IMG/VR virus record: IMGVR_UViG_2740892235_000008
Length of the DNA stretch: 9,382 nucleotides
From: a virus
Taxonomy: Duplodnaviria; Heunggongvirae; Uroviricota; Caudoviricetes
Direction: 5' to 3' (one strand)
The notes beneath the pieces are model-generated. The model was not told the DNA's origin. It saw nothing but the letters and a program-made list of their open reading frames with translations, and did no database searches. Position 1 is the stretch's first letter. Every line of letters starts with the position of its first letter. Shown in pieces: positions 2,125 to 9,247 of this stretch. Both the position numbers and the translations under genes were made by a program.

Positions 2125-2612
2125 TAAGCCCCCACGTAATTCCCTGACAGATACCACTCTTCACCCGATACAGCGCGCTTGCTGCTTTTCCGTAAACACC
2201 GCTCACGACGCGCAAGAAAATTGTTTCGCTCTTGCTGGGAGTGGCTTTCACGGAATGCCGCCATCCACACCGTTGCAGCACGACGGTATAAGCCCCTGGA
2301 CTCCAGTTCTTCCGCCTGGCGGGTCAGGCACAAAATCACCCGGGGATCGTTAGTGCCGACATAGAAATTGCGCACAGGTCTGGATTCACGAACTGGTTGC
2401 GGTTCCGGCTCCTGCGGTATCTCAGTCAGCCGCGGGAAATGTCTGCGTGTATCCCCTTCACAACGGTGAGCCACACGCCCACTCTGACGTAACTTGCTTG
2501 CTGACTGCAGAACGCGCTGTCGTGAGTAACCTGCAAAAGCATCCGCAATGTCTCCGGAAGTACACCCCGGATGGGCTTCAATGAATTTCTGAACGTCATT
2601 CAAAAGACTCAT
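2124..2612 (-). CDS. PerC/ANR-family-like regulator with an additional N-terminal domain, about 162 aa
   Basis: ATG 2610-2612 preceded by AGGGGG with about 5 nt spacing (GTG at 2616-2618 is the alternative). C-terminal LESRGLYRRAATVWMAAF...RRERCL matches the remembered PerC/Pch signature (GLWRRAA..W...RR..CL). Stop overlaps the next ATG. Confidence 0.5.
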   Translation of the reverse strand: MSLLNDVQKFIEAHPGCTSGDIADAFAGYSRQRVLQSASKLRQSGRVAHRCEGDTRRHFPRLTEIPQEPEPQPVRESRPVRNFYVGTNDPRVILCLTRQAEELESRGLYRRAATVWMAAFRESHSQQERNNFLARRERCLRKSSKRAVSGEEWYLSGNYVGA

Positions 2613-2614
2613 GA

Positions 2615-3794
2615 TCACCCCCTGAATCCTGCCGGGATCTGGCTGTAGTCCACATTGTCGTAACTGGCTTTGAAGTACGGGTCTTCGCGTTTTTCTGTGT
2701 ACGTGCTGACGGACGGCGATAAGCGCAGGGAAAGCTCATCCCATTTTTCCCGCAGCTTCGACGGGCTGAGCACGTTNNNNNNNNNNATTTGAAGTACGGG
2801 TCTTCGCGTTTTTCGGTGTACGTGCTGACGGACGGCGATAAGCGCAGGGAAAGCTCATCCCATTTTTCCCGCAGCTTCGACGGGCTGAGCACGTTACGGC
2901 ACCAGAACGGATCGCGGCTGACGCGGCTGTACATCTCGCAGATTTGTTTATGAGTACGACCATCCTGCACACACATCAGGCGAATTTCGTTTGCCCAGGC
3001 TGTCCAGTTCGGTTCTTTGGGACGAACCACCTCGCCGTCACATTCGGCAGCCTGCTCGTACAGGGCGATGATTTTTTTCCAGAACCACTGTGCGCAGGTC
3101 AAATCATCCTGCGTCCCCCACTGGCGTTTTTTAGGGCTGAATACAACCGCATCAGGATGGCGAGTTAAAAAATCCTGTTCAGCCGTCTGCGTGTCCGGTT
3201 GCGAAGAGTCCGGACGAGAAGGTTTTTTATCTGACGGATCATGTTTTGATTTTACTGACGGATCCCCGCCAGATTCTGACGGGTGAAAACCCGCTTTTTT
3301 GCCAGATTTCGACGCATCAAATTTTGACGGGTCAGATTTTGATGCGTCAGATTTTGACGGGTCAGAATCTGACAGTTGAGAAAATGCCGCTGCCTGAAGC
3401 TTCGCAACGTTAAGCTGATAAACATTCGACGCATTGCGGTTACCCTGGCGACGCGCCTTACGCGTTAACCAGCCTTCTGCTTCCAGCCGTGCGATAGCCG
3501 TTCTGACGGTACTCATCCCCGCGCCAATCTGGCGTGCAATGGTTTCAATCGATGGCCAGCACACACCTTCGTCATTACTGAAATCAGCCAGGCGGGCCAT
3601 AATTGCCACGCTGGATAATTTCATGCCTGANNNNNNNNNNAGCCAATCTGACGGGCAATGGTTTCAATTGATGGCCAGCACACACCTTCGTCATTACTGA
3701 AATCAGCCAGGCGGGCCATAATTGCCACGCTGGATAATTTCATGCCTGACGCTGCGCAACCATCCCATACATAGCCGGTTAATTTAGTGCTCAT
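2615..3794 (-). CDS. phage replication initiator, O-like (N-terminal wHTH, Ser/Asp/Lys-rich repeat linker, C-terminal domain); spans two scaffold joins with duplicated flanks
   Basis: ATG 3792-3794 with GAGG Shine-Dalgarno 7 nt upstream; translation MSTKLTGYVWDGCAASGMKLSSVAIMARLADFSNDEGVCWPSIETIARQIG... In-frame through segment 2787-3630. True stop TGA at 2615-2617 found by hand translation (…DPYFKASYDNVDYSQIPAGFRG). The ORF-track frame after the 2777-2786 gap is an artefact. Real gene length is shorter than the coordinate span because 2672-2776 / 2789-2896 and 3520-3630 / 3641-3751 are duplicated overlaps. Confidence 0.6.
2777..2786. other. assembly gap (10 N)
   Basis: Run of n characters; about 105 bp either side are near-identical direct repeats. 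Confidence 0.95.
3224..3377. repeat. iteron-like tandem array (15-bp period; consensus CAGATTTTGACGNGT; 5 contiguous copies at 3303-3377 plus degenerate copies at 3224-3284); candidate replication origin inside the initiator gene
   Basis: Direct reading: cagatttcgacgcat / caaattttgacgggt / cagattttgatgcgt / cagattttgacgggt / cagaatctgacagtt, plus cagattctgacgggt at 3270-3284 and two CTGACGGATC-containing units at 3224-3265. They encode the SDxSK pentapeptide repeats of the linker. Lambda ori iterons lie inside O in the same way (established knowledge). Confidence 0.5.
3631..3640. other. assembly gap (10 N)
   Basis: Run of n characters; 3520-3630 and 3641-3751 are near-identical with 3 SNPs. 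Confidence 0.95.
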
Positions 3795-3803
3795 GACCGA
3801 CCT

Positions 3804-4142
3804 CTATTTCCCTGAATTTACGACGAAACTGTTCGAGCGGGCTGAAGCACTCATGCTCATAGCCTTCGCGGAGGTAGATAACACGTTGTGTTTCCGGCTC
3901 CCAACGAATGACTCTGACGGGCACTCCGTAGTGATCTTTGAACCAGCGGTTAACTTGTCGCAAAGGACTGTCTCCTTCTGCCGGTTGAAATCACCCACAG
4001 CCCACTCTGCAAAGCTGTGGGTTACAATTTCCCTGTCACCTGGTACATTTACTGCATAGCAATACTCCACCTTCGCTTTTCCACCCGGTACAGGAAGCGC
4101 AATCAGTTGCGAGCGACGGTAGTGTGTTGTTAAACTGTTCAT
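3804..4142 (-). CDS. hypothetical protein (112 aa) between cII-like and replication genes
   Basis: ORF-track ORF; ATG 4140-4142 overlaps the upstream stop as ATGA; stop is 9 nt before the replication gene ATG. Same strand as the whole operon. No recognisable family. Confidence 0.4.
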
Positions 4143-4690
4143 GCGTTAGTTTCTCCACAGTCACGACACGCCACGGCGCCCGGAGCTGCACACTCGCGGG
4201 CGTCACTACTTTCTGAAACGCAAAAGATTTTGTAGACCAGTGCTGCATGCTCCTGCAGCTTCGAAATTGAGAGGTACAGCTCATCGTTAATTGCTGTCTT
4301 CTCATGCGGTTCCACTACACCGTCTTCAATTGCTGAACGAATCTGTTTTGAATAACTGCCGATCTGTTCAATGACCTCCAGCAGGCGTTGGTTGATATCG
4401 GCGTTGTCCACATCCTCGACATCAGGAAGAGACACAAAGACGCCATTTGCAGACTGCGCCACAGCGTCAGCAATGAAGTGAGTTCCACCAGCACGTTGCA
4501 AAATCATTGCCCATCCCAGCGGGAAAATCTGATCGCCATCGGCACGAAGGCGGTTAAATAATGCGTTCTCTGTTACATCCAGCCAGTCAGCAGCTTCAGC
4601 GTACCCCCCCGGCAACGCTGCGATAGTTTTTCTGACAGCTTTCACGTACCACTCAGGCTGTTTTTCTACTTTCCAGTGATGCTTACCCAC
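4139..4690 (-). CDS. cII-like early regulator (HTH-containing, 183 aa)
   Basis: GTG start 4688-4690 preceded by a perfect AGGAGG with 6 nt spacing. Sits immediately downstream of the cro-like gene. Remote cII-like HTH pattern in …[19 protein letters not shown]. Function inferred from position and weak pattern. Confidence 0.55.
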
Positions 4691-4943
4691 GGTTCACCTC
4701 CTGTTCCTGTGGTTTAAACCCATTCTGGTTTTGGCTAGATTGAAAACGTGCCGGATAAAGAATCTGCATTTCGCTGACTTCACCCTTAAAAAAATTGGCT
4801 AAACGTTCTGCAAGCTCGATAGATGGAATCTGCTCCAGCCTCTCAATACGACTCAACGTCGCTGGATTGACTTGAACACCCGCAGCAACATGCTGCAAAG
4901 TGAAACCATGCGCCTTACGCACATTTCGTAATGGTGATTGCAT
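4683..4943 (-). CDS. cro: Cro-like XRE-family HTH repressor (86 aa), immunity module 1
   Basis: ATG 4941-4943 with GGAGGG Shine-Dalgarno; translation MQSPLRNVRKAHGFTLQHVAAGVQVNPATLSRIERLEQIPSIELAERLANFF is a typical HTH_3 fold. Divergent from the cI-like gene across a 97-bp operator region. Confidence 0.7.
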   Translation of the reverse strand: MQSPLRNVRKAHGFTLQHVAAGVQVNPATLSRIERLEQIPSIELAERLANFFKGEVSEMQILYPARFQSSQNQNGFKPQEQEVNRG

Positions 4944-5040
4944 ATGCCCTCCAAATATTGCGCGTTATGCATGTTATTTCACGCAATTATTTTGCGCAAG
5001 TTGATTTGCTTATCACGCAATAAAGAAATGTAATAAACGC
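4944..5040. promoter_or_regulatory. divergent promoter/operator region (OR/PR/PRM-like) of immunity module 1
   Basis: Between divergent cro-like and cI-like starts. Contains dyad TTGCTTATCACGCAA (5006-5020), a weaker TTGCGCGTTATGCAT (4958-4972) and the palindrome CGCAATTATTTTGCG (4982-4996). Possible PR toward cro: -35 TTGCGC, -10 TAACAT read on the minus strand. Confidence 0.55.
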
Positions 5041-5733
5041 ATGAACATAGGAAACCGAGTCAGACAACTTCGCCAAGCGAAGAACATGAAAATCGCCGAT
5101 CTCGCTGAAGCGATAGGAGTAGATGCGGCGAACATCTCGCGCTTAGAAACGGGTAAGCAAAAACAATTTACCGAACAAACACTGAGTAATATTGCCAGGA
5201 GCTTAGGTGTTGATATTGCTGATCTCTTTACCTCTGCCCACAAAAGTAATACTGTATATAAAAACAGTAATAATGAGGATGTTGCGCAGGTGAAGGATGT
5301 GTTCCGTATTGAAATGCTGGATATCAGTGCCAGTGCGGGAAATGGCCTTATCCAGGGCGGTGATGTCATTGATGTGATTCATGCCATCGAATACAGAACT
5401 GATAATGCTGTATCAATGTTCGGCGGACGACCAGCCAATCACATCAAAGTTATCAACGTTCGTGGGGACAGTATGTGTCCAACCATTGAGCCCGGAGATC
5501 TCATCTTCGTTGATGTCAGCATCAATCAGTTTGATGGTGATGGTATATATGTCTTTGGTTTTGATGACAAAATATACGTTAAAAGACTTCAAATGATTCC
5601 TGACAAACTGCTGGTGATTTCTGATAACCAGATTTACCGTGAATGGGGAATTACTAGCGAAAACGAACACCGATTCATGGTCTTTGGAAAGGTCTTAATC
5701 AGTCAGTCGCAAACCCTTAAGAGACATAATTAA
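5041..5733 (+). CDS. cI: CI-like phage repressor (N-terminal XRE HTH, C-terminal S24/LexA-type autopeptidase), 230 aa
   Basis: Translation has HTH (VRQLRQAKNMKIADLAEAIGVDAANISRLETGK), a candidate Ala-Gly cleavage site (ASAGNG) and the S24 catalytic motifs GDSM … KRL. Stop TAA 5731-5733. Confidence 0.9.
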   Translation: MNIGNRVRQLRQAKNMKIADLAEAIGVDAANISRLETGKQKQFTEQTLSNIARSLGVDIADLFTSAHKSNTVYKNSNNEDVAQVKDVFRIEMLDISASAGNGLIQGGDVIDVIHAIEYRTDNAVSMFGGRPANHIKVINVRGDSMCPTIEPGDLIFVDVSINQFDGDGIYVFGFDDKIYVKRLQMIPDKLLVISDNQIYREWGITSENEHRFMVFGKVLISQSQTLKRHN

Positions 5734-5742
5734 CCTCAATAT

Positions 5743-5765
5743 CCCATCCATCGGCCACCGAAAGG
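5743..5765 (+). terminator. rho-independent terminator downstream of cI-1
   Basis: GGCCACC-GAAA-GGTGGC hairpin followed by TTTTT (ggccaccgaaaggtggcttttt). Confidence 0.7.
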
Positions 5766-5777
5766 TGGCTTTTTATT

Positions 5778-5828
5778 ACCTATAAATTTGCATATCTCGC
5801 AAATATCACTTGCATATCTCGCAATTTA
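5778..5828 (+). promoter_or_regulatory. candidate OL/pL of module 1: two 15-bp direct repeats TTGCATATCTCGCAA (5778-5792, 5800-5814) overlapping a sigma70-like promoter (-35 TTGCAT 5800-5805, 17-bp spacer, -10 TATCTT 5823-5828)
   Basis: The repeats share the TTGC-N7-GCAA dyad and 13 of 15 bases with the OR site 5006-5020, consistent with the same repressor binding at both. Spacing of the two copies is 22 bp. Confidence 0.45.
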
Positions 5829-5920
5829 ATTTTATCTTTTGTTCCAGACCAACTACAGGATTACAACAAAATCTGGTTGCAACACGGTGCATGTGTCGTA
5901 AGCAGTCAGTAAATGTCAAA

Positions 5921-5985
5921 AACGAACAGGCAGGACGCCCACGAAGTAGCCGCCGGTGGCGTATGAATGACCGGATGATTCGTTA
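5921..5985 (+). ncRNA. conserved 65-nt structured element, copy 1 (candidate cis-acting leader RNA, nut/put-like, or small RNA)
   Basis: Same 65-nt sequence as 8186-8250 except in a 20-nt core. Outer inverted repeat AACGAA…TTCGTT. Inner stem CCGGT(N12)ACCGG here versus CCTGG(N12)CCAGG in copy 2, i.e. two compensatory base-pair changes preserve the stem. Confidence 0.4.
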
Positions 5986-6009
5986 AATACTATGTGTAAG
6001 AGAGCGCAA

Positions 6010-6213
6010 ATGAACCGTTATTTCACATGCTCGTTTTGTGGCGCAAACGAGCTGCAGGCAAAAAAAATCATCGCCAAAGGCGGAAAAGATGAAGTTGCTA
6101 TCTGCTCTGAGTGCGTAGTCTTGTGTGTCGGGGCATTAATCAATAGCAGCACAACTATTCGGTTCACACCAAATGAGAATGCGCCTTTAGATGCGCGGAA
6201 ATCTGGAGGTTAA
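6010..6213 (+). CDS. small ClpX-type C4 zinc-finger (ClpX N-terminal ZBD-like) protein, about 67 aa
   Basis: Translation MNRYFTCSFCGANELQAKKIIAKGGKDEVAICSECVVLC… matches the remembered ClpX N-terminal zinc-binding signature ([33 protein letters not shown]). Purine-rich AAGAGAG 5 nt before ATG 6010; the ORF-track ATG at 5992 has no Shine-Dalgarno. Confidence 0.55.
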   Translation: MNRYFTCSFCGANELQAKKIIAKGGKDEVAICSECVVLCVGALINSSTTIRFTPNENAPLDARKSGG

Positions 6214-6221
6214 AGAACAAA

Positions 6222-6497
6222 ATGAAAGTCCAGATTTTAAACAATAGTGGTGAAGTCGTTTGGTCATACGACATAGCCGCTCCTGTAGATCAGAGCGGCG
6301 ATAGCTGGACCAATGGGAAACATCAGATTATGGCTGGAGTTGTATTCTCTTTACGCCGTGCTTTGGAACAGGCTGAAGTCTTTCCATCAGACCCTGAATG
6401 GAAATGGCCTTTTTCTATTTGTCCAAATTCGGAGAGTACATTTCAGAAAATTGGTCAGAAAGTCGCACTCGAAGAGCATCAGCCAACTGTTTCCTGA
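6222..6497 (+). CDS. hypothetical protein (91 aa)
   Basis: ORF-track ORF. GGAGG at 6205-6209 but with 12-nt spacing to the ATG. Its 3' 83 nt overlap the convergent ORF at 6415-6660, so the true extent of one of the two is uncertain. Confidence 0.4.
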   Translation: MKVQILNNSGEVVWSYDIAAPVDQSGDSWTNGKHQIMAGVVFSLRRALEQAEVFPSDPEWKWPFSICPNSESTFQKIGQKVALEEHQPTVS

Positions 6498-6660
6498 TTT
6501 TTTCAGGTAACTCGTCGGCATCGCAGAAACAACAACGCTCGATCATGTTGAAAGCCGATTCGTAGAACTGTTTCTGCTGAGTGTCGCTGAGACAGGAAAA
6601 GAGCGACGTTACGATGATTTTATTAATTGCATTATCAAGTTCTTTTTCATCAAAAGTCAT
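6415..6660 (-). CDS. hypothetical protein (81 aa), convergent to the preceding ORFs
   Basis: ATG 6658-6660 with AAGGA Shine-Dalgarno about 7 nt upstream (revcomp of 6661-6680 is atacataaaaggaaaatcaa). Protein-like composition with a CCFCD motif. Confidence 0.45.
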   Translation of the reverse strand: MTFDEKELDNAINKIIVTSLFSCLSDTQQKQFYESAFNMIERCCFCDADELPEKIRKQLADALRVRLSDQFSEMYSPNLDK

Positions 6661-6689
6661 TTGATTTTCCTTTTATGTATACGGGCTTA

Positions 6690-6803
6690 AAAGGATACCA
6701 CCGAGCCTGAAGTGGTGAAAAGACAGGCACATAACAGCTAAGTATTTTCAACCAGAGAGAATCCTTAGCGTTGTGGTGAATGCGGCTCAGCGCACGCGGG
6801 TTA
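6690..6803. repeat. conserved right-flank element, copy A (6725-6803 identical to 8930-9008; 6690-6724 similar with SNPs to 8896-8929)
   Basis: Direct comparison of the two stretches; copy A is truncated by the gap at 6804. Confidence 0.6.
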
Positions 6804-6813
6804 NNNNNNNNNN
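6804..6813. other. assembly gap (10 N)
   Basis: Run of n characters. Confidence 0.95.
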
Positions 6814-7128
6814 TTCCAGCAGGCGTTGGTTGATATCGGCGTTGTCCACATCCTCGACGTCAGGAAGAGACACAAAGACGCCATTTGCAGACTGCGCCAC
6901 TGCGTCAGCAATGAAGTGAGTTCCACCAGCACGTTGCAAAATCATTGCCCATCCCAGCGGGAAAATCTGATCGCCATCGGCACGAAGGCGGTTAAATAAT
7001 GCGTTCTCTGTTACATCCAGCCAGTCAGCTGCTTCAGCGTAACCACCCGGCAACTTTGCGATAGTTTTTCTGACAGCTTTCACGTACCACTCAGGCTGTT
7101 TTTCTACTTTCCAGTGATGCTTACCCAC
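6814..7128 (-). CDS. cII-like regulator, second copy, N-terminal part (3' end cut by gap)
   Basis: GTG 7126-7128 with GAGG Shine-Dalgarno 6 nt upstream; translation nearly identical to 4139-4690 (one A to K change seen). 6814-7128 repeats 4376-4690. Confidence 0.55.
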
Positions 7129-7165
7129 GGTTAGCCTCATCGTTCTGTGGTTTCTGTTAATCGAT

Positions 7166-7366
7166 TTATCCATTAGATTTTTCATAAAGCTCAGGTTTAA
7201 ATGGCAACCGTCCGCAAGTTCTATATGCAGCTTCTGCTGCACGTCCTTTTGGAATTAACTGGCCCGGACGGTTTCGCCACTGATAAACGGCTTCAGTTGT
7301 TATGCCGAAAAAAGCAGCAACTTTCTCAATACTGCCGAAGTAGCTTTCGATATCGTCAGTTGTCAT
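7166..7366 (-). CDS. cro: Cro-like small HTH protein (66 aa), immunity module 2
   Basis: ATG 7364-7366 preceded by TTTGGAGGGCGT, the same leader as cro-1. Translation …SIEKVAAFFGITTEAVYQWRNRPGQLIPKGRAAEAAY is a Cro/YdaS-type HTH pattern. Divergent from cI-2. Confidence 0.65.
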   Translation of the reverse strand: MTTDDIESYFGSIEKVAAFFGITTEAVYQWRNRPGQLIPKGRAAEAAYRTCGRLPFKPELYEKSNG

Positions 7367-7463
7367 ACGCCCTCCAAACTAAGTTTTGTTAGATGCTAAT
7401 TACAAATCTATCTTTGGTCAATAAAAACTAAGATTACTTAGCAATTAAAGAAATGGTGCTCCT
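7367..7463. promoter_or_regulatory. divergent promoter/operator region of immunity module 2
   Basis: Contains 14-bp dyads CTAAGTTTTGTTAG (7379-7392) and CTAAGATTACTTAG (7428-7441); consensus CTAAG-N4-sTTAG, unrelated to the module 1 operator motif. Confidence 0.5.
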
Positions 7464-8090
7464 ATGGAAACGGTTGGTCAGCGTATAAAAGCTCTGAGAA
7501 GAGTTACCAGAACGTCCCAGAAAGAATTGGGTAAATTTTGTGGAGTAAGCGACGTTGCTGTGGGGTACTGGGAGAAAGACATCAATACCCCTGGCGGGGA
7601 GGCACTTTCGAAATTAGCGAAGTTCTTCAATACGTCAATAGATTACATTCTTTATGGTGCTGAGTTTGAAGGCAAACTCGTCACAAACATGCGCAGAGTT
7701 CCTGTAATATCGTGGGTTCAGGCTGGGCAGTTTACTGAGTGCAGGGCAGCAGAAGTGTTTAGTGAAGTGGACAAGTGGGTAGATACATCATTAAAGGTTG
7801 GTGATAACTCATTTGCATTAGAGGTTAAAGGTGACTCCATGACTAACCCTAATGGCCTCCCAACAATACCAGAAGGCGCAACAGTGATTGTAGATCCAGA
7901 TGCAGAACCTCGTCATGGAAAAATAGTCATCGCTCGACTTGATGGAACAAACGAAGCTACAGTAAAAAAATTAGTCATCGATGGCCCTCAAAAGTTTTTA
8001 GTGCCATTAAATCCTCGGTATCCCAACATCCCTATCAATGGTAATTGCCTTATCATTGGTGTAGTCAAAGGAGTTCAATACGAACTCTAA
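7464..8090 (+). CDS. cI: CI-like phage repressor 2 (HTH plus S24 autopeptidase), 208 aa
   Basis: Translation has HTH (IKALRRVTRTSQKELGKFCGVSDVAVGYWEKD) and the S24 motifs GDSM … KKL. Sequence is unrelated to cI-1 apart from fold-level motifs. Confidence 0.9.
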   Translation: METVGQRIKALRRVTRTSQKELGKFCGVSDVAVGYWEKDINTPGGEALSKLAKFFNTSIDYILYGAEFEGKLVTNMRRVPVISWVQAGQFTECRAAEVFSEVDKWVDTSLKVGDNSFALEVKGDSMTNPNGLPTIPEGATVIVDPDAEPRHGKIVIARLDGTNEATVKKLVIDGPQKFLVPLNPRYPNIPINGNCLIIGVVKGVQYEL

Positions 8091-8112
8091 GATCTCTCTT
8101 CTCTAACTAAGG

Positions 8113-8145
8113 CACCGAACTAAGAAAAGTTTGGTGTTTTCTCTT
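8113..8145 (+). terminator. rho-independent terminator downstream of cI-2
   Basis: CACCGAAC-(8-nt loop)-GTTTGGTG, an 8-bp stem with one G-U pair, followed by TTTTCTCTT. Confidence 0.55.
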
Positions 8146-8172
8146 GCCATGATAACTAAGTTAAGTTAGATT
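8144..8172 (+). promoter_or_regulatory. candidate OL/pL of module 2: -35 TTGCCA (8144-8149), 17-bp spacer containing operator CTAAGTTAAGTTAG (8156-8169), -10 TAGATT (8167-8172)
   Basis: The operator matches the module 2 OR dyad consensus; promoter hexamers read directly. Confidence 0.4.
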
Positions 8173-8185
8173 TTATATCAAAGAT

Positions 8186-8250
8186 AACGAACAGGCAGGA
8201 CGCCCACGAAGTAGCCGCCTGGGGCATATGAAGTCCAGGATGATTCGTTA
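8186..8250 (+). ncRNA. conserved 65-nt structured element, copy 2
   Basis: See copy 1; starts only about 6-8 nt after the predicted pL2 transcription start. Confidence 0.4.
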
Positions 8251-8254
8251 GCAA

Positions 8255-8279
8255 CAAAAAAGCGCCCTACAGGACGCTT
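8255..8279 (-). terminator. rho-independent terminator for the convergent cargo gene (possibly bidirectional)
   Basis: On the minus-strand RNA: AGCGUCC-UGUA-GGGCGCU (7-bp stem, one G-U) followed by UUUUUU. On the plus strand the same hairpin has one C-A mismatch. Confidence 0.65.
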
Positions 8280-8317
8280 AGCTCTTTAACAATCAGGATA
8301 TCCACAACAGTAGTAAT

Positions 8318-8809
8318 CTACAGATTGCCGTTAAGTTTTCTGGACAACTCCTCAATGGATGGAGGCGATACGTAATCCGGATTTTTATTCATCAGAAACT
8401 TATTTTCACAGTGGAGGCACCTGCTTTTATGAAAAAGCTCATCTTCGCTAACCGGGAATGGTTGAAGTATCGATACTATCTTTTGTCCAAAACATTTTGG
8501 GCAAAGATGCATGGTTATGCTGCCACCGTTCACGATTACCTCCTTCGAGTATACAAAAGTACCCGACTCAAGTTGGTTAAGGATATAGCCTTCCGTCTGA
8601 GCCTCAAAGTTTTCGAATTCTGCAATTTTAGCTTTGAGAGAAGCATTTATTTCTTGATAAGAGCCCACCAGTTCAACGAGAGACACGCATTCGCGCTGAA
8701 TAGACGCAAGCTTTGAGTTCAGCTCACCAATAGCCGCATTTACTTCAGCTTGAGTTTTTGCCTCGTTCATTAGTTTTGCAATCTGGGCTGTTTCACGAAT
8801 AGCCGTCAT
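8318..8809 (-). CDS. hypothetical cargo protein, about 163 aa: N-terminal predicted coiled coil, C-terminal CxxC…CxxC zinc-ribbon-like motif
   Basis: In-frame ATG 8807-8809 (MTAIRETAQIAKLMNEAKTQAEV…) is the first start downstream of the shared flank; the ORF-track start at 9097 would read through the shared flank. The Shine-Dalgarno is weak and a later ATG at 8768-8770 (MNEAK) is possible. C-terminal …HLCPKCFGQKIV…CLHCENKF…; stop 8318-8320; own terminator at 8255-8279. Confidence 0.5.
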   Translation of the reverse strand: MTAIRETAQIAKLMNEAKTQAEVNAAIGELNSKLASIQRECVSLVELVGSYQEINASLKAKIAEFENFEAQTEGYILNQLESGTFVYSKEVIVNGGSITMHLCPKCFGQKIVSILQPFPVSEDELFHKSRCLHCENKFLMNKNPDYVSPPSIEELSRKLNGNL

Positions 8810-8847
8810 TGCTGCCGTTAATTCAGCGATCACATTGAATACTCTTA

Positions 8848-8901
8848 TTGTTGTTGGGGATATCCAGATTAACCGAATCCTTGTTGTTGGGGAATAACCA
8901 G
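8848..8901. repeat. two about 20-bp direct repeats TTGTTGTTGGGGA(T/A)A(T/A)CCAG (8848-8867, 8881-8901) upstream of the cargo gene start
   Basis: Direct reading. Lies in the putative promoter region of the minus-strand gene, 33-bp period. Confidence 0.5.
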
Positions 8902-9008
8902 GTCCACCTCGCCTGATGTGGCTAAAAGCAGGCACATAACAGCTAAGTATTTTCAACCAGAGAGAATCCTTAGCGTTGTGGTGAATGCGGCTCAGCGCAC
9001 GCGGGTTA
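8896..9008. repeat. conserved right-flank element, copy B
   Basis: 8930-9008 identical to 6725-6803; preceding about 34 bp similar with SNPs. Confidence 0.6.
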
Positions 9009-9120
9009 AGGTTGAGGCTGACAGTCGACCTTCTGTGGATACCCACCCGCCTGGTGTGCAACCTTCGCCAGGCACCGGGAGGCACCCGGCACCACAACTT
9101 TATGCTGTGTGTAGTCCTGG

Positions 9121-9166
9121 CGGTACCAGTTTGTACCCTTGCTTCCGGCTGGTACCGTCCTTTTTT
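9121..9166 (+). terminator. large hairpin plus T-tract (CGGTACCAG-N19-CTGGTACCG then TCCTTTTTT); candidate plus-strand terminator
   Basis: 9-bp perfect inverted repeat followed by a T6 run. An allelic copy at 9258-9304 keeps the stem and carries a CTCTTTTT tract. Confidence 0.5.
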
Positions 9167-9247
9167 GCAAAACAGAGAAGAGCATCACCGGACGACGGGC
9201 TCATAACCCAATCCATCCGGGCGGCTGCCACCGCAGGTGTTCTTCTC

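Follow-up and report, generated by a model that had tools for sequence, protein, structure and literature searches.

The accessory loci beside the immunity region of temperate phages, such as lambda rexAB, sieB-esc of lambda and P22, and bstA-aba of BTP1, are exchangeable and share a common logic: a factor expressed in the lysogen needs to be neutralized during the prophage's own lytic growth. Closer in layout to the locus described here are ymfJ/ymfI of prophage e14 and ydaF/sieB of Rac, where the first gene after the repressor is faced by a gene on the opposite strand and the two overlap at their 3′ ends; in Rac this convergent position, facing ydaF, is held by sieB, a known superinfection-exclusion gene. 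Both ymfI-ymfJ and sieB-ydaF belong to the convergent excludome of MG1655 defined by RNA-seq (PMC12288877). In the Pseudomonas phage Fc02, olg1 and gene 10 overlap in antisense beside the repressor, one expressed in the lysogen and the other from the lytic promoter, and exclusion activity has been shown experimentally for both (PMC9936078). Here we describe a pair of convergent, 3′-overlapping genes, with an optional ClpX-type zinc-finger gene in front of it, that occupies a variable slot next to the repressor gene of an e14/SfV-like prophage. It lies in a 9,382-nucleotide (nt) stretch of Caudoviricetes DNA (IMG/VR record IMGVR_UViG_2740892235_000008), the whole of which we call the window. 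We refer to the pair as the cassette and to its members, by strand, as the plus and minus genes.

Like ymfJ/ymfI and ydaF/sieB, the locus comes first after the repressor, and ymfI has the same promoter-like box (the P-box) and ymfJ the same leader as the window. Unlike SieB, which is a membrane protein, the minus protein is soluble and has no hydrophobic segments; neither BLAST nor profile comparison finds similarity between SieB and either cassette protein. The likeness to rexAB, sieB-esc and bstA-aba is one of layout: those loci are co-oriented with cI or pL (rexAB within the cI operon), whereas the cassette is convergent, with a terminator and oL operators between it and cI. Fc02, for its part, is a Mu-like phage whose pair has no homology to the cassette and another overlap geometry. 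Exclusion, the function of rexAB, sieB-esc, bstA-aba and the Fc02 genes, is for the cassette our hypothesis. The minus gene also recalls the morons of lambdoid phages, being highly exchangeable and having an apparent promoter of its own directed against the phage operon; unlike a moron's, however, its P-box belongs to the conserved backbone and is common to many cargos, the cargo often has a cognate plus-strand partner, and no clear terminator was found.

Three real protein-coding genes make up the region, a slot delimited by recombination. The genes and the boundaries of the slot, in window coordinates, are as follows.

6010-6213, plus strand: standalone ClpX-type C4 zinc-finger protein of 67 amino acids (aa), an optional module (PF06689, phrog_5259)
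6222-6497, plus strand: plus gene of the cassette, 91 aa, equal to SfV orf33 (phrog_3195)
6415-6660, minus strand: minus gene of the cassette, 81 aa, acidic and predicted helical (phrog_3311)
5921-5985, plus strand: left boundary, a structured element of ~65 nt in the pL leader, identified by covariation
6693-6727, minus strand: the P-box, CCTGTCTTTTCACCACTTCAGGCTCGGTGGTATCC, promoter-like, 33 nt upstream of the minus gene ATG and forming the right edge of the variable slot
6698-6803, plus strand: right flank, cut by a gap at 6804, spanning the 5′ part of an e14 ymfH-like region

The original prediction, made from the sequence of the window, had placed three open reading frames (ORFs) here, the last two convergent with an 83-nt overlap of their 3′ ends; all three are present, and the overlap covers 6415-6497. 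An alternative ATG at 5992 would extend the finger to 73 aa, and the start at 6010 agrees with Salmonella homologues (MNNYYTCSFCG). The minus gene has a Shine-Dalgarno sequence, AAGGAA, at 6667-6672. Existing annotations of the overlapping genes conflict: the Prokaryotic Genome Annotation Pipeline (PGAP) calls the plus ORF only, and a RAST-style phage record calls the minus ORF only. PGAP never annotates the 81-aa minus gene, whether in L001 (8682-8927) or in any of the PGAP-annotated Escherichia coli genomes seen, and gene callers missed its homologues in most of the diverged loci too.

The pattern of codon change indicates that both overlapping ORFs are protein-coding and under purifying selection. 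In Salmonella and metagenomic prophages (L006, L008 and L010) whose proteins are 61-68% (plus) and 60-65% (minus) identical to those of the window, both ORFs are open, convergent and overlapping. Ratios of nonsynonymous to synonymous change (dN/dS) are 0.07-0.25 over the first 60 codons of the plus gene and 0.13-0.15 over the first 50 codons of the minus gene, these being the non-overlapping halves; the changes there fall mostly on third positions, with synonymous sites almost saturated. The register is such that the third position of one gene is the second position of the other, and at ~6432-6461 the codon position that varies most changes over, from the third of the plus frame to the third of the minus frame. 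We regard both ORFs as coding because dN/dS is low in each gene's own half and because the codon phase switches between them. Both stay open in eight lineages, and across lineages of 31-68% amino acid identity they keep their convergent, overlapping arrangement under purifying selection, which exceeds what chance would give. The small proteins are conserved at the protein level.

The constrained part of each gene stops close to the middle of the pair, that of the plus gene at ~6431-6461, and the 83-nt overlap consists mostly of weakly constrained C-terminal tails, the plus tail following the minus frame there. The 91-aa plus protein is a shortened form of 122-aa relatives. Past the TGA of its ORF the frame continues as FFQVTRRHRRNNNARSC (6495-6551), which is like the Cys/His-rich tails of those relatives; this region is probably not selected as plus protein because it evolves by the minus frame. 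Both cassette proteins are acidic, soluble and non-hydrophobic (grand average of hydropathy ~-0.4, isoelectric point 4.6-5.0). Their PHROGs matches are to families of "unknown function" only, and a whole-library profile search with the plus family gave 19 representatives among 1.84 billion proteins, all of one small family. A candidate CxxC zinc site in the minus protein (CCFCDADELPEK, compared with CSFCGANELQAK of the finger; E = 0.04) was rejected, a single Cys being conserved across lineages.

The plus and minus genes are a strict two-gene cassette, inherited together. Four lineages at 67-75% nucleotide identity all have exactly 439 nt from the plus start to the minus start, with no gap. 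The two genes are found together in eight of eight diverged lineages and, among the 105 IMG/VR contigs that carry the left flank, in 18 of 18. A minus homologue is convergent to every plus homologue examined, in e14-like and in Rac-like prophages, the most distant (L017, L018, L019/L020 and L021) having 31-37% amino acid identity in the minus protein. Complete E. coli genomes contain the pair in 503 cases out of 5426 (~9%) and the full arrangement of finger and pair in 83. In L004 (E. coli O19:H7 730V1, 2783-4128) a single zinc finger is followed by two tandem cassettes, both of which have a P-box of their own. At their junction the initial 14 codons of the 91-aa ORF recur and then a stop, as a recombination scar; an apparent paralogue of the plus ORF at 32% identity in the same locus was discarded as nothing but this duplicated junction.

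The zinc finger is an independent optional module outside the two-gene cassette. Only 4 of the 18 pair-bearing viral contigs carry it; it is missing from the other 14 and from SfV, and the pair occurs without it in SfV and two E. coli phages. Where the window has the finger within a 235-nt stretch (5985-6219), SfV has 45 nt instead, and between loci the finger appears as a discrete insertion of ~190 nt that lengthens the distance from leader to flank from 611 to 801 nt or from 584 to 773 nt. It is present in 98 of the 5426 complete E. coli genomes, beside the cassette in 83 of these, and in 11 contigs; the other cargos it precedes include a second plus/minus pair, a Salmonella cargo and F1055-type genes. 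Where present, it is always the first ORF past the structured leader. The original prediction had treated the three ORFs as one set expected to co-occur elsewhere. The pair does so, but the finger comes and goes as a separate insertion and also fronts other cargos, so that the three do not form an obligate set.

As to the nature of the finger, the ClpX zinc-finger signature claimed for it was confirmed: it scores 41.3 bits against PF06689 (zf-C4_ClpX), for which the Pfam gathering cut-off is 27, with Salmonella relatives at 37-41 bits and a fusion protein in L017 at 30.3 bits. Aligned with the zinc-binding domain (ZBD) of E. coli ClpX (PDB 2DS5/1OVX), it keeps all four Cys (CSFC, CSEC; CxxC ... 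CxxC) and is identical at ~16 of 34 core residues (~47%). It is not a ClpX unfoldase, having no AAA+ module and only 26.6 bits against the NCBIfam ClpX equivalog (cut-off 359). Thus it shares with the ClpX N-terminal domain (PF06689; PDB 1OVX, 2DS5-2DS8) the C4 signature CSFCG ... ICxECVxLC, but differs in that it stands alone, as a 67-aa product of a phage early region that ends in a 25-aa tail, and zinc binding, dimerization and docking of adaptors or substrates (SspB tail, lambda O, MuA) would be predicted activities. A search of the literature found nothing on free-standing phage ClpX fingers or on the protein accessions.

The finger also occurs in fusions. L017 encodes a 187-aa protein whose N-terminus is a complete ClpX-type finger and whose C-terminus is 42% identical to the plus protein, and a minus homologue is convergent to it. 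Some relatives of the plus protein that have no start codon of their own are C-terminal domains of longer proteins, and others bear an unrelated N-terminal domain instead of the finger. In a widespread Salmonella allele the finger is fused to a different plus-strand partner, again facing a minus gene. These sequences suggest that the finger can act in one polypeptide with plus-strand partners.

The window is a scaffold in which contigs are separated by runs of 10 N (at 891, 1141, 1504, 2777, 3631, 6804 and 9248). These contigs stem from at least two related prophages, and adjacency across the gaps is not real; module 1 (3641-6803), which holds the cassette, and module 2 (6814-9247) are separate contigs of two related prophages, not neighbors. 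The claim that the two modules have the same flanks around unrelated content is correct: 5921-5985 matches 8186-8250 at 89%, 6698-6803 matches 8904-9008 at 94% over ~105 nt, and nothing between is alike.

The left flank is common to module 2, SfV, e14 of K-12, Salmonella phages, ST64B-like prophages and some Rac-like loci. We computed covariation on 61 distinct variants, with shuffles and slid controls. Pairing is maintained in 98.5% of cells, compared with 88% in shuffles, and the covariation score is 0.274, compared with 0.074 in shuffles (0 of 500 reach 0.274) and 0.02-0.05 in slid controls. The inner 5-bp hairpin has the pair types CG25/GC19/UA13/AU3 and GC24/UA17/AU12/CG3, and the outer stem GC34/AU20. 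No match was found in Rfam. We consider the left flank to be an RNA or DNA element, and a candidate for a site of nut/put-like antitermination or of processing. The ORF at 5810-5986, with its Arg-rich C-terminus, was rejected as an N-like protein: its last 21 codons alone are conserved, and these coincide with the covarying element.

At the right edge, the P-box has the form CCTGTCTTTTCACCAC-N-GTGGTATCC (35 nt) and lies 26-38 nt (once 65 nt) upstream of at least eight unrelated minus-strand cargo ORFs, among them e14 ymfI (5427-5461 in L012, e14 of K-12). Its -10-like hexamer appears as TATCCT, TATCTT, TATGCT, TACTCT or TAACCT, with T1, A2 and T6 invariant and positions 3-5 variable, and TATCCT is preceded by TGg, an extended -10 signature. 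We infer that the P-box is a shared extended -10 promoter. The box forms a hairpin as well, in which L010 shows one compensatory change. The right flank corresponds to where an STnc100-like RNA begins in module 2, the start in module 1 being near 6739. In module 2, 8945-9168 (plus strand) matches Rfam STnc100 with 40.3 bits, below the gathering score of 47 (E = 4e-6). This STnc100-like segment ends in a terminator-like stem and a U run, and it overlaps a ymfH-like "frameshifted hypothetical" of PGAP. A 2026 preprint links STnc100 to the PasD small RNAs.

Between these boundaries lies a variable accessory slot. The leader is present in 120 viral contigs, of which 105 have enough sequence to be sorted by cargo and form 63 clusters; in 43 of the 120 the right flank is present as well, 486-944 nt away. 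At least five unrelated convergent, 3′-overlapping pairs occupy the slot, each a small plus ORF followed by a minus ORF: the cassette described here (91/81 aa), pairs of 68/63 aa, 68/144 aa (13 contigs) and 108/78 aa, and ymfJ/ymfI. Profile comparison finds no homology among these pairs, nor do BLAST or hhalign between the cassette and the other pairs of the slot or YmfJ, YmfI, SieB, YdaF, YdaG or YdaE (hhalign probability at most 1%). The suggestion of an accessory or defense hotspot is thus borne out in its first part, the variability of the slot; its second part is carried by analogy, a search of PADLOC-DB 2.0 having given no significant match for the three proteins or for 10 alternative slot cargo proteins.

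The cargo of module 2 is a single 163-aa ORF on the minus strand (8318-8809, beginning MTAIRET) that recurs in five viral contigs; its product combines an N-terminal half that resembles a coiled coil with a zinc ribbon, CPKC...CLHC, at the C-terminus and matches nothing in Pfam or PADLOC, and the box upstream is a degenerate P-box. Two other loci carry an additional gene between repressor and slot: in L005 (E. coli DETEC-P61, 1506-2396) a 296-aa BRCT-domain protein on the opposite strand, and in L006 (a Salmonella Rac-like prophage, 2552-3706) a 384-aa HSDR_N (restriction-endonuclease-like) protein.

The regulatory sites that separate cI from the slot, together with the neighboring genes in the order of module 1, are as follows.

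4139-4690, minus strand: CII-like gene
4683-4943, minus strand: Cro-like gene
5041-5733, plus strand: S24 CI-type repressor gene (cI), preceding the slot
5753-5779, plus strand: intrinsic terminator after cI, GGCCACC-GAAA-GGTGGC and a T run, found by terminator scan
5788-5802 and 5810-5824: two identical oL-type operators, TTGCATATCTCGCAA, in the interval between cI and the slot
5810-5838, plus strand: putative pL, with -35 TTGCAT (5810-5815), a 17-nt spacer and -10 TATCTT (5833-5838), read from sequence

The two operators share a 15-mer class (TTGC-N7-GCAA) with an oR site at 5006-5020 in the cI-cro intergenic region. The window has three matches to this class where 0.37 are expected, and 2 of 200 shuffles reach three. 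The putative pL overlaps the second operator. In e14 and SfV the order is likewise terminator, TTGACA-N17-CATAAT and leader; in e14 of K-12 a corresponding hairpin with its T run follows ymfK. A scan of 5943-6696 found no intrinsic terminator. Since the terminator and two oL-type operators separate cI from the slot, the plus-strand genes most likely belong to a CI-repressed early-left (pL) operon headed by the slot, not to the cI operon; the same features speak against a lysogen-expressed, rexAB-like position inside the cI operon. This placement fits the behavior of ymfJ, which stands first after the repressor in e14, at the position equivalent to that of the slot's plus genes, and which is induced late, like other CI-repressed e14 genes. 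In the SOS response its log2 fold change is 4.05 and then 4.83, together with ymfM and intE, and the facing gene ymfI changes little (PMC11002266).

From this anatomy we propose an excludon-like model for the locus, which we judge, taken as a whole, to have about an even chance of being right. The finger and the plus gene would be the first genes of a CI-repressed pL operon, made only on induction or infection. The minus gene would be transcribed in the opposite direction from the P-box, independently of CI, and hence be made in the lysogen, so that the two transcription units collide. When pL fires, the plus protein would be made while head-on transcription and antisense RNA silence the minus gene. 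By analogy, the SOS induction of ymfJ as against ymfI supports such opposing regulation of the plus and minus units.

The most speculative part of the model concerns the proteins. The minus protein may be a lysogenic-conversion or exclusion factor, with the plus protein its cognate early antagonist, which would provide self-immunity during the prophage's own lytic growth. The finger may mimic the adaptor- or substrate-docking domain of ClpX and act as a decoy that spares substrates dependent on the ClpX N-domain; alternatively, fused to or paired with the plus protein, it could link that protein to ClpXP. In vitro, the free ZBD of ClpX, supplied in trans, inhibits degradation of N-domain-dependent substrates (lambda O, MuA), and in lambda the pL product cIII inhibits FtsH, a protease of the host. 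The idea of a ClpX mimic is speculation built on these two analogies. The finger would resemble cIII as a small early-left product proposed to disturb substrate selection by a host AAA+ protease; cIII, however, targets FtsH and not ClpX, the two have no homology, and the finger's role is read by analogy.

Several points weigh against the model. AlphaFold2 models of the cassette proteins are poor (predicted local distance difference test score 43.9 for the plus protein, from a 7-row alignment, and 57.6 for the minus protein, modeled as three helices), and neither protein has a match in Pfam, NCBIfam, PADLOC or PDB; homology searches of the small proteins have thus placed the finger, in PF06689, and neither member of the cassette. 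Presence of the finger varies independently of the cassette, an argument against its being needed for cassette function, and the Salmonella fusion is weak evidence for a functional link between finger and plus partner: the fused and unfused phage alleles differ by a 2-nt indel in DNA that is 99.8% identical. A strict promoter scan reported neither pL nor the P-box, both being consensus-level calls, and the terminator scan flagged the P-box hairpin as terminator-like on the minus strand. The timing of expression is deduced from anatomy and from positional equivalents in K-12, and interaction and antagonism between the plus and minus proteins are speculative, proposed by analogy. Finally, co-inheritance could reflect plain physical linkage between two recombination-prone flanks.

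This last point leads to the main alternative, that there is no functional coupling and that three unrelated small genes are kept together by their overlap and by recombination in the flanks (leader and P-box). We consider this possible, though on the unlikely side. The free assortment of the finger and the lack of any domain in the cassette proteins are what it would predict, some slot cargos are single minus-strand genes (as in module 2), and the constrained gene parts barely overlap, so that the overlap may be incidental. Against this, the pair keeps its fixed geometry in Rac-like backbones with different neighbors and down to ~31% identity, the unconstrained overlapping tails have been kept where they could easily be lost, at least five unrelated families repeat the plus/minus layout, and the finger has been fused to a plus partner twice independently. 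A more radical doubt, that one of the overlapping ORFs is real and the other an annotation artifact, draws on the disagreement between annotations and is scarcely credible: third-position-dominated change in each non-overlapping half, a constrained frame that switches midway and two frames open in eight lineages refute it at the evolutionary level.

The remaining alternatives assign a function to the region other than the one we propose. The finger could be a generic zinc ribbon, a nucleic-acid-binding early regulator that acts, for example, like N on the pL leader. Its constant place as the first ORF after the structured leader would suit such a role, the first gene of a lambdoid pL operon being typically an antiterminator; but its identity to the host ClpX ZBD core, its passing of a specific Pfam model, the lack of an arginine-rich motif and the presence of the leader in most finger-less loci, which means that the leader does not need the finger, make this unlikely. 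We find it rather more improbable that the three genes form a lysogen-expressed module past cI of the lambda rexAB or BTP1 bstA type, serving jointly in exclusion, as a toxin-antitoxin or in hijacking proteolysis. Next to the repressor is the classic place for exclusion genes, rexAB and bstA included, and the slot is highly variable; yet the terminator and oL operators split cI from the slot, the equivalent ymfJ acts as a CI-repressed, SOS-induced gene, the pair does without the finger, and PADLOC gives no match. Very improbable, in our view, is a toxin-antitoxin pair of type II or of a type I-like kind with a 3′-overlapping antisense partner (compare txpA/RatA and bsrG/SR4); the original prediction had named a toxin-antitoxin-like module as one possibility for the set. 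Two small, strictly co-inherited genes would fit, and a convergent 3′ overlap is the layout of several type I systems. But the genes are convergent and not co-transcribed, the products are acidic, soluble and hydrophilic, unlike type I toxins, and with both frames constrained as protein neither is merely an antisense RNA; if the plus gene is CI-repressed, the minus product would be alone in the lysogen and so could not be an unneutralized toxin. Pfam, NCBIfam and PADLOC returned no toxin or antitoxin domain, so the resemblance comes down to analogy. In sum, the cassette does not qualify as a type I or type II toxin-antitoxin system, as Rex, SieB or BstA, or as a system listed in PADLOC.

Returning to the excludon-like model, it can be put in a more general form, which we offer as a conjecture that we think doubtful. 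Prophages of the e14/SfV/Rac type may carry interchangeable face-to-face units between a structured pL-leader RNA and a fixed minus-strand promoter, each consisting of an effector for exclusion or host modulation, made in the lysogen, and its early-lytic antidote, wired as an excludon, with the ClpX finger as an add-on. The firing of pL would then shut the effector off at both the RNA and the protein level, and the captured ClpX finger would route the effector to ClpXP or block ClpX.

With regard to the origin of the DNA, an e14/SfV-like prophage integrated at icd of E. coli 00-3076 agrees with module 1 at 99.8% identity. Beyond the slot, the complete genome continues with the ymfH-like region, yfdP, yfdQ, an HD hydrolase, xis and int. 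Module 2 stems from another, related prophage, whose immunity type is different. Near-duplicate pieces flank several of the gaps in the scaffold (1152-1503 and 1656-2007, 96%; 4377-4715 and 6815-7153, 96%). At 3300-3374, within a replication-protein gene (2596-3624, minus strand), there are tandem, partly inverted TCAAAATCTGAC repeats that resemble origin iterons; an Rfam microRNA match at this position is spurious, produced by these repeats.

The elements of this locus are individually known as hypothetical (SfV orf33, phrog_3195, phrog_3311), and the cassette proteins belong to no described family. In the literature searched, we found no description of the logic of the cassette, of the P-box that the cargos share, of the structured leader or of the finger as an optional module. 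The cassette is common, occurring in ~9% of complete E. coli genomes, yet its minus gene goes unannotated by PGAP and both its proteins are orphans. Should the model fail, what remains would be ordinary small phage ORFs in a mosaic region. Since ymfJ/ymfI in e14 of K-12 has the same architecture, the model is directly testable in a standard strain. The finger, as a candidate host-derived mimic of the ClpX N-domain, may be a phage tool against ClpXP or a means of hijacking it, and should the more general conjecture be true, it would represent a new family of phage-encoded ClpX N-domain mimics. The slot is marked out by a promoter-like box common to many cargos and by the structured leader. If our model is true, it would provide a simple and general wiring rule, by which lambdoid prophages carry accessory genes that are expressed in the lysogen without harming their own induction.

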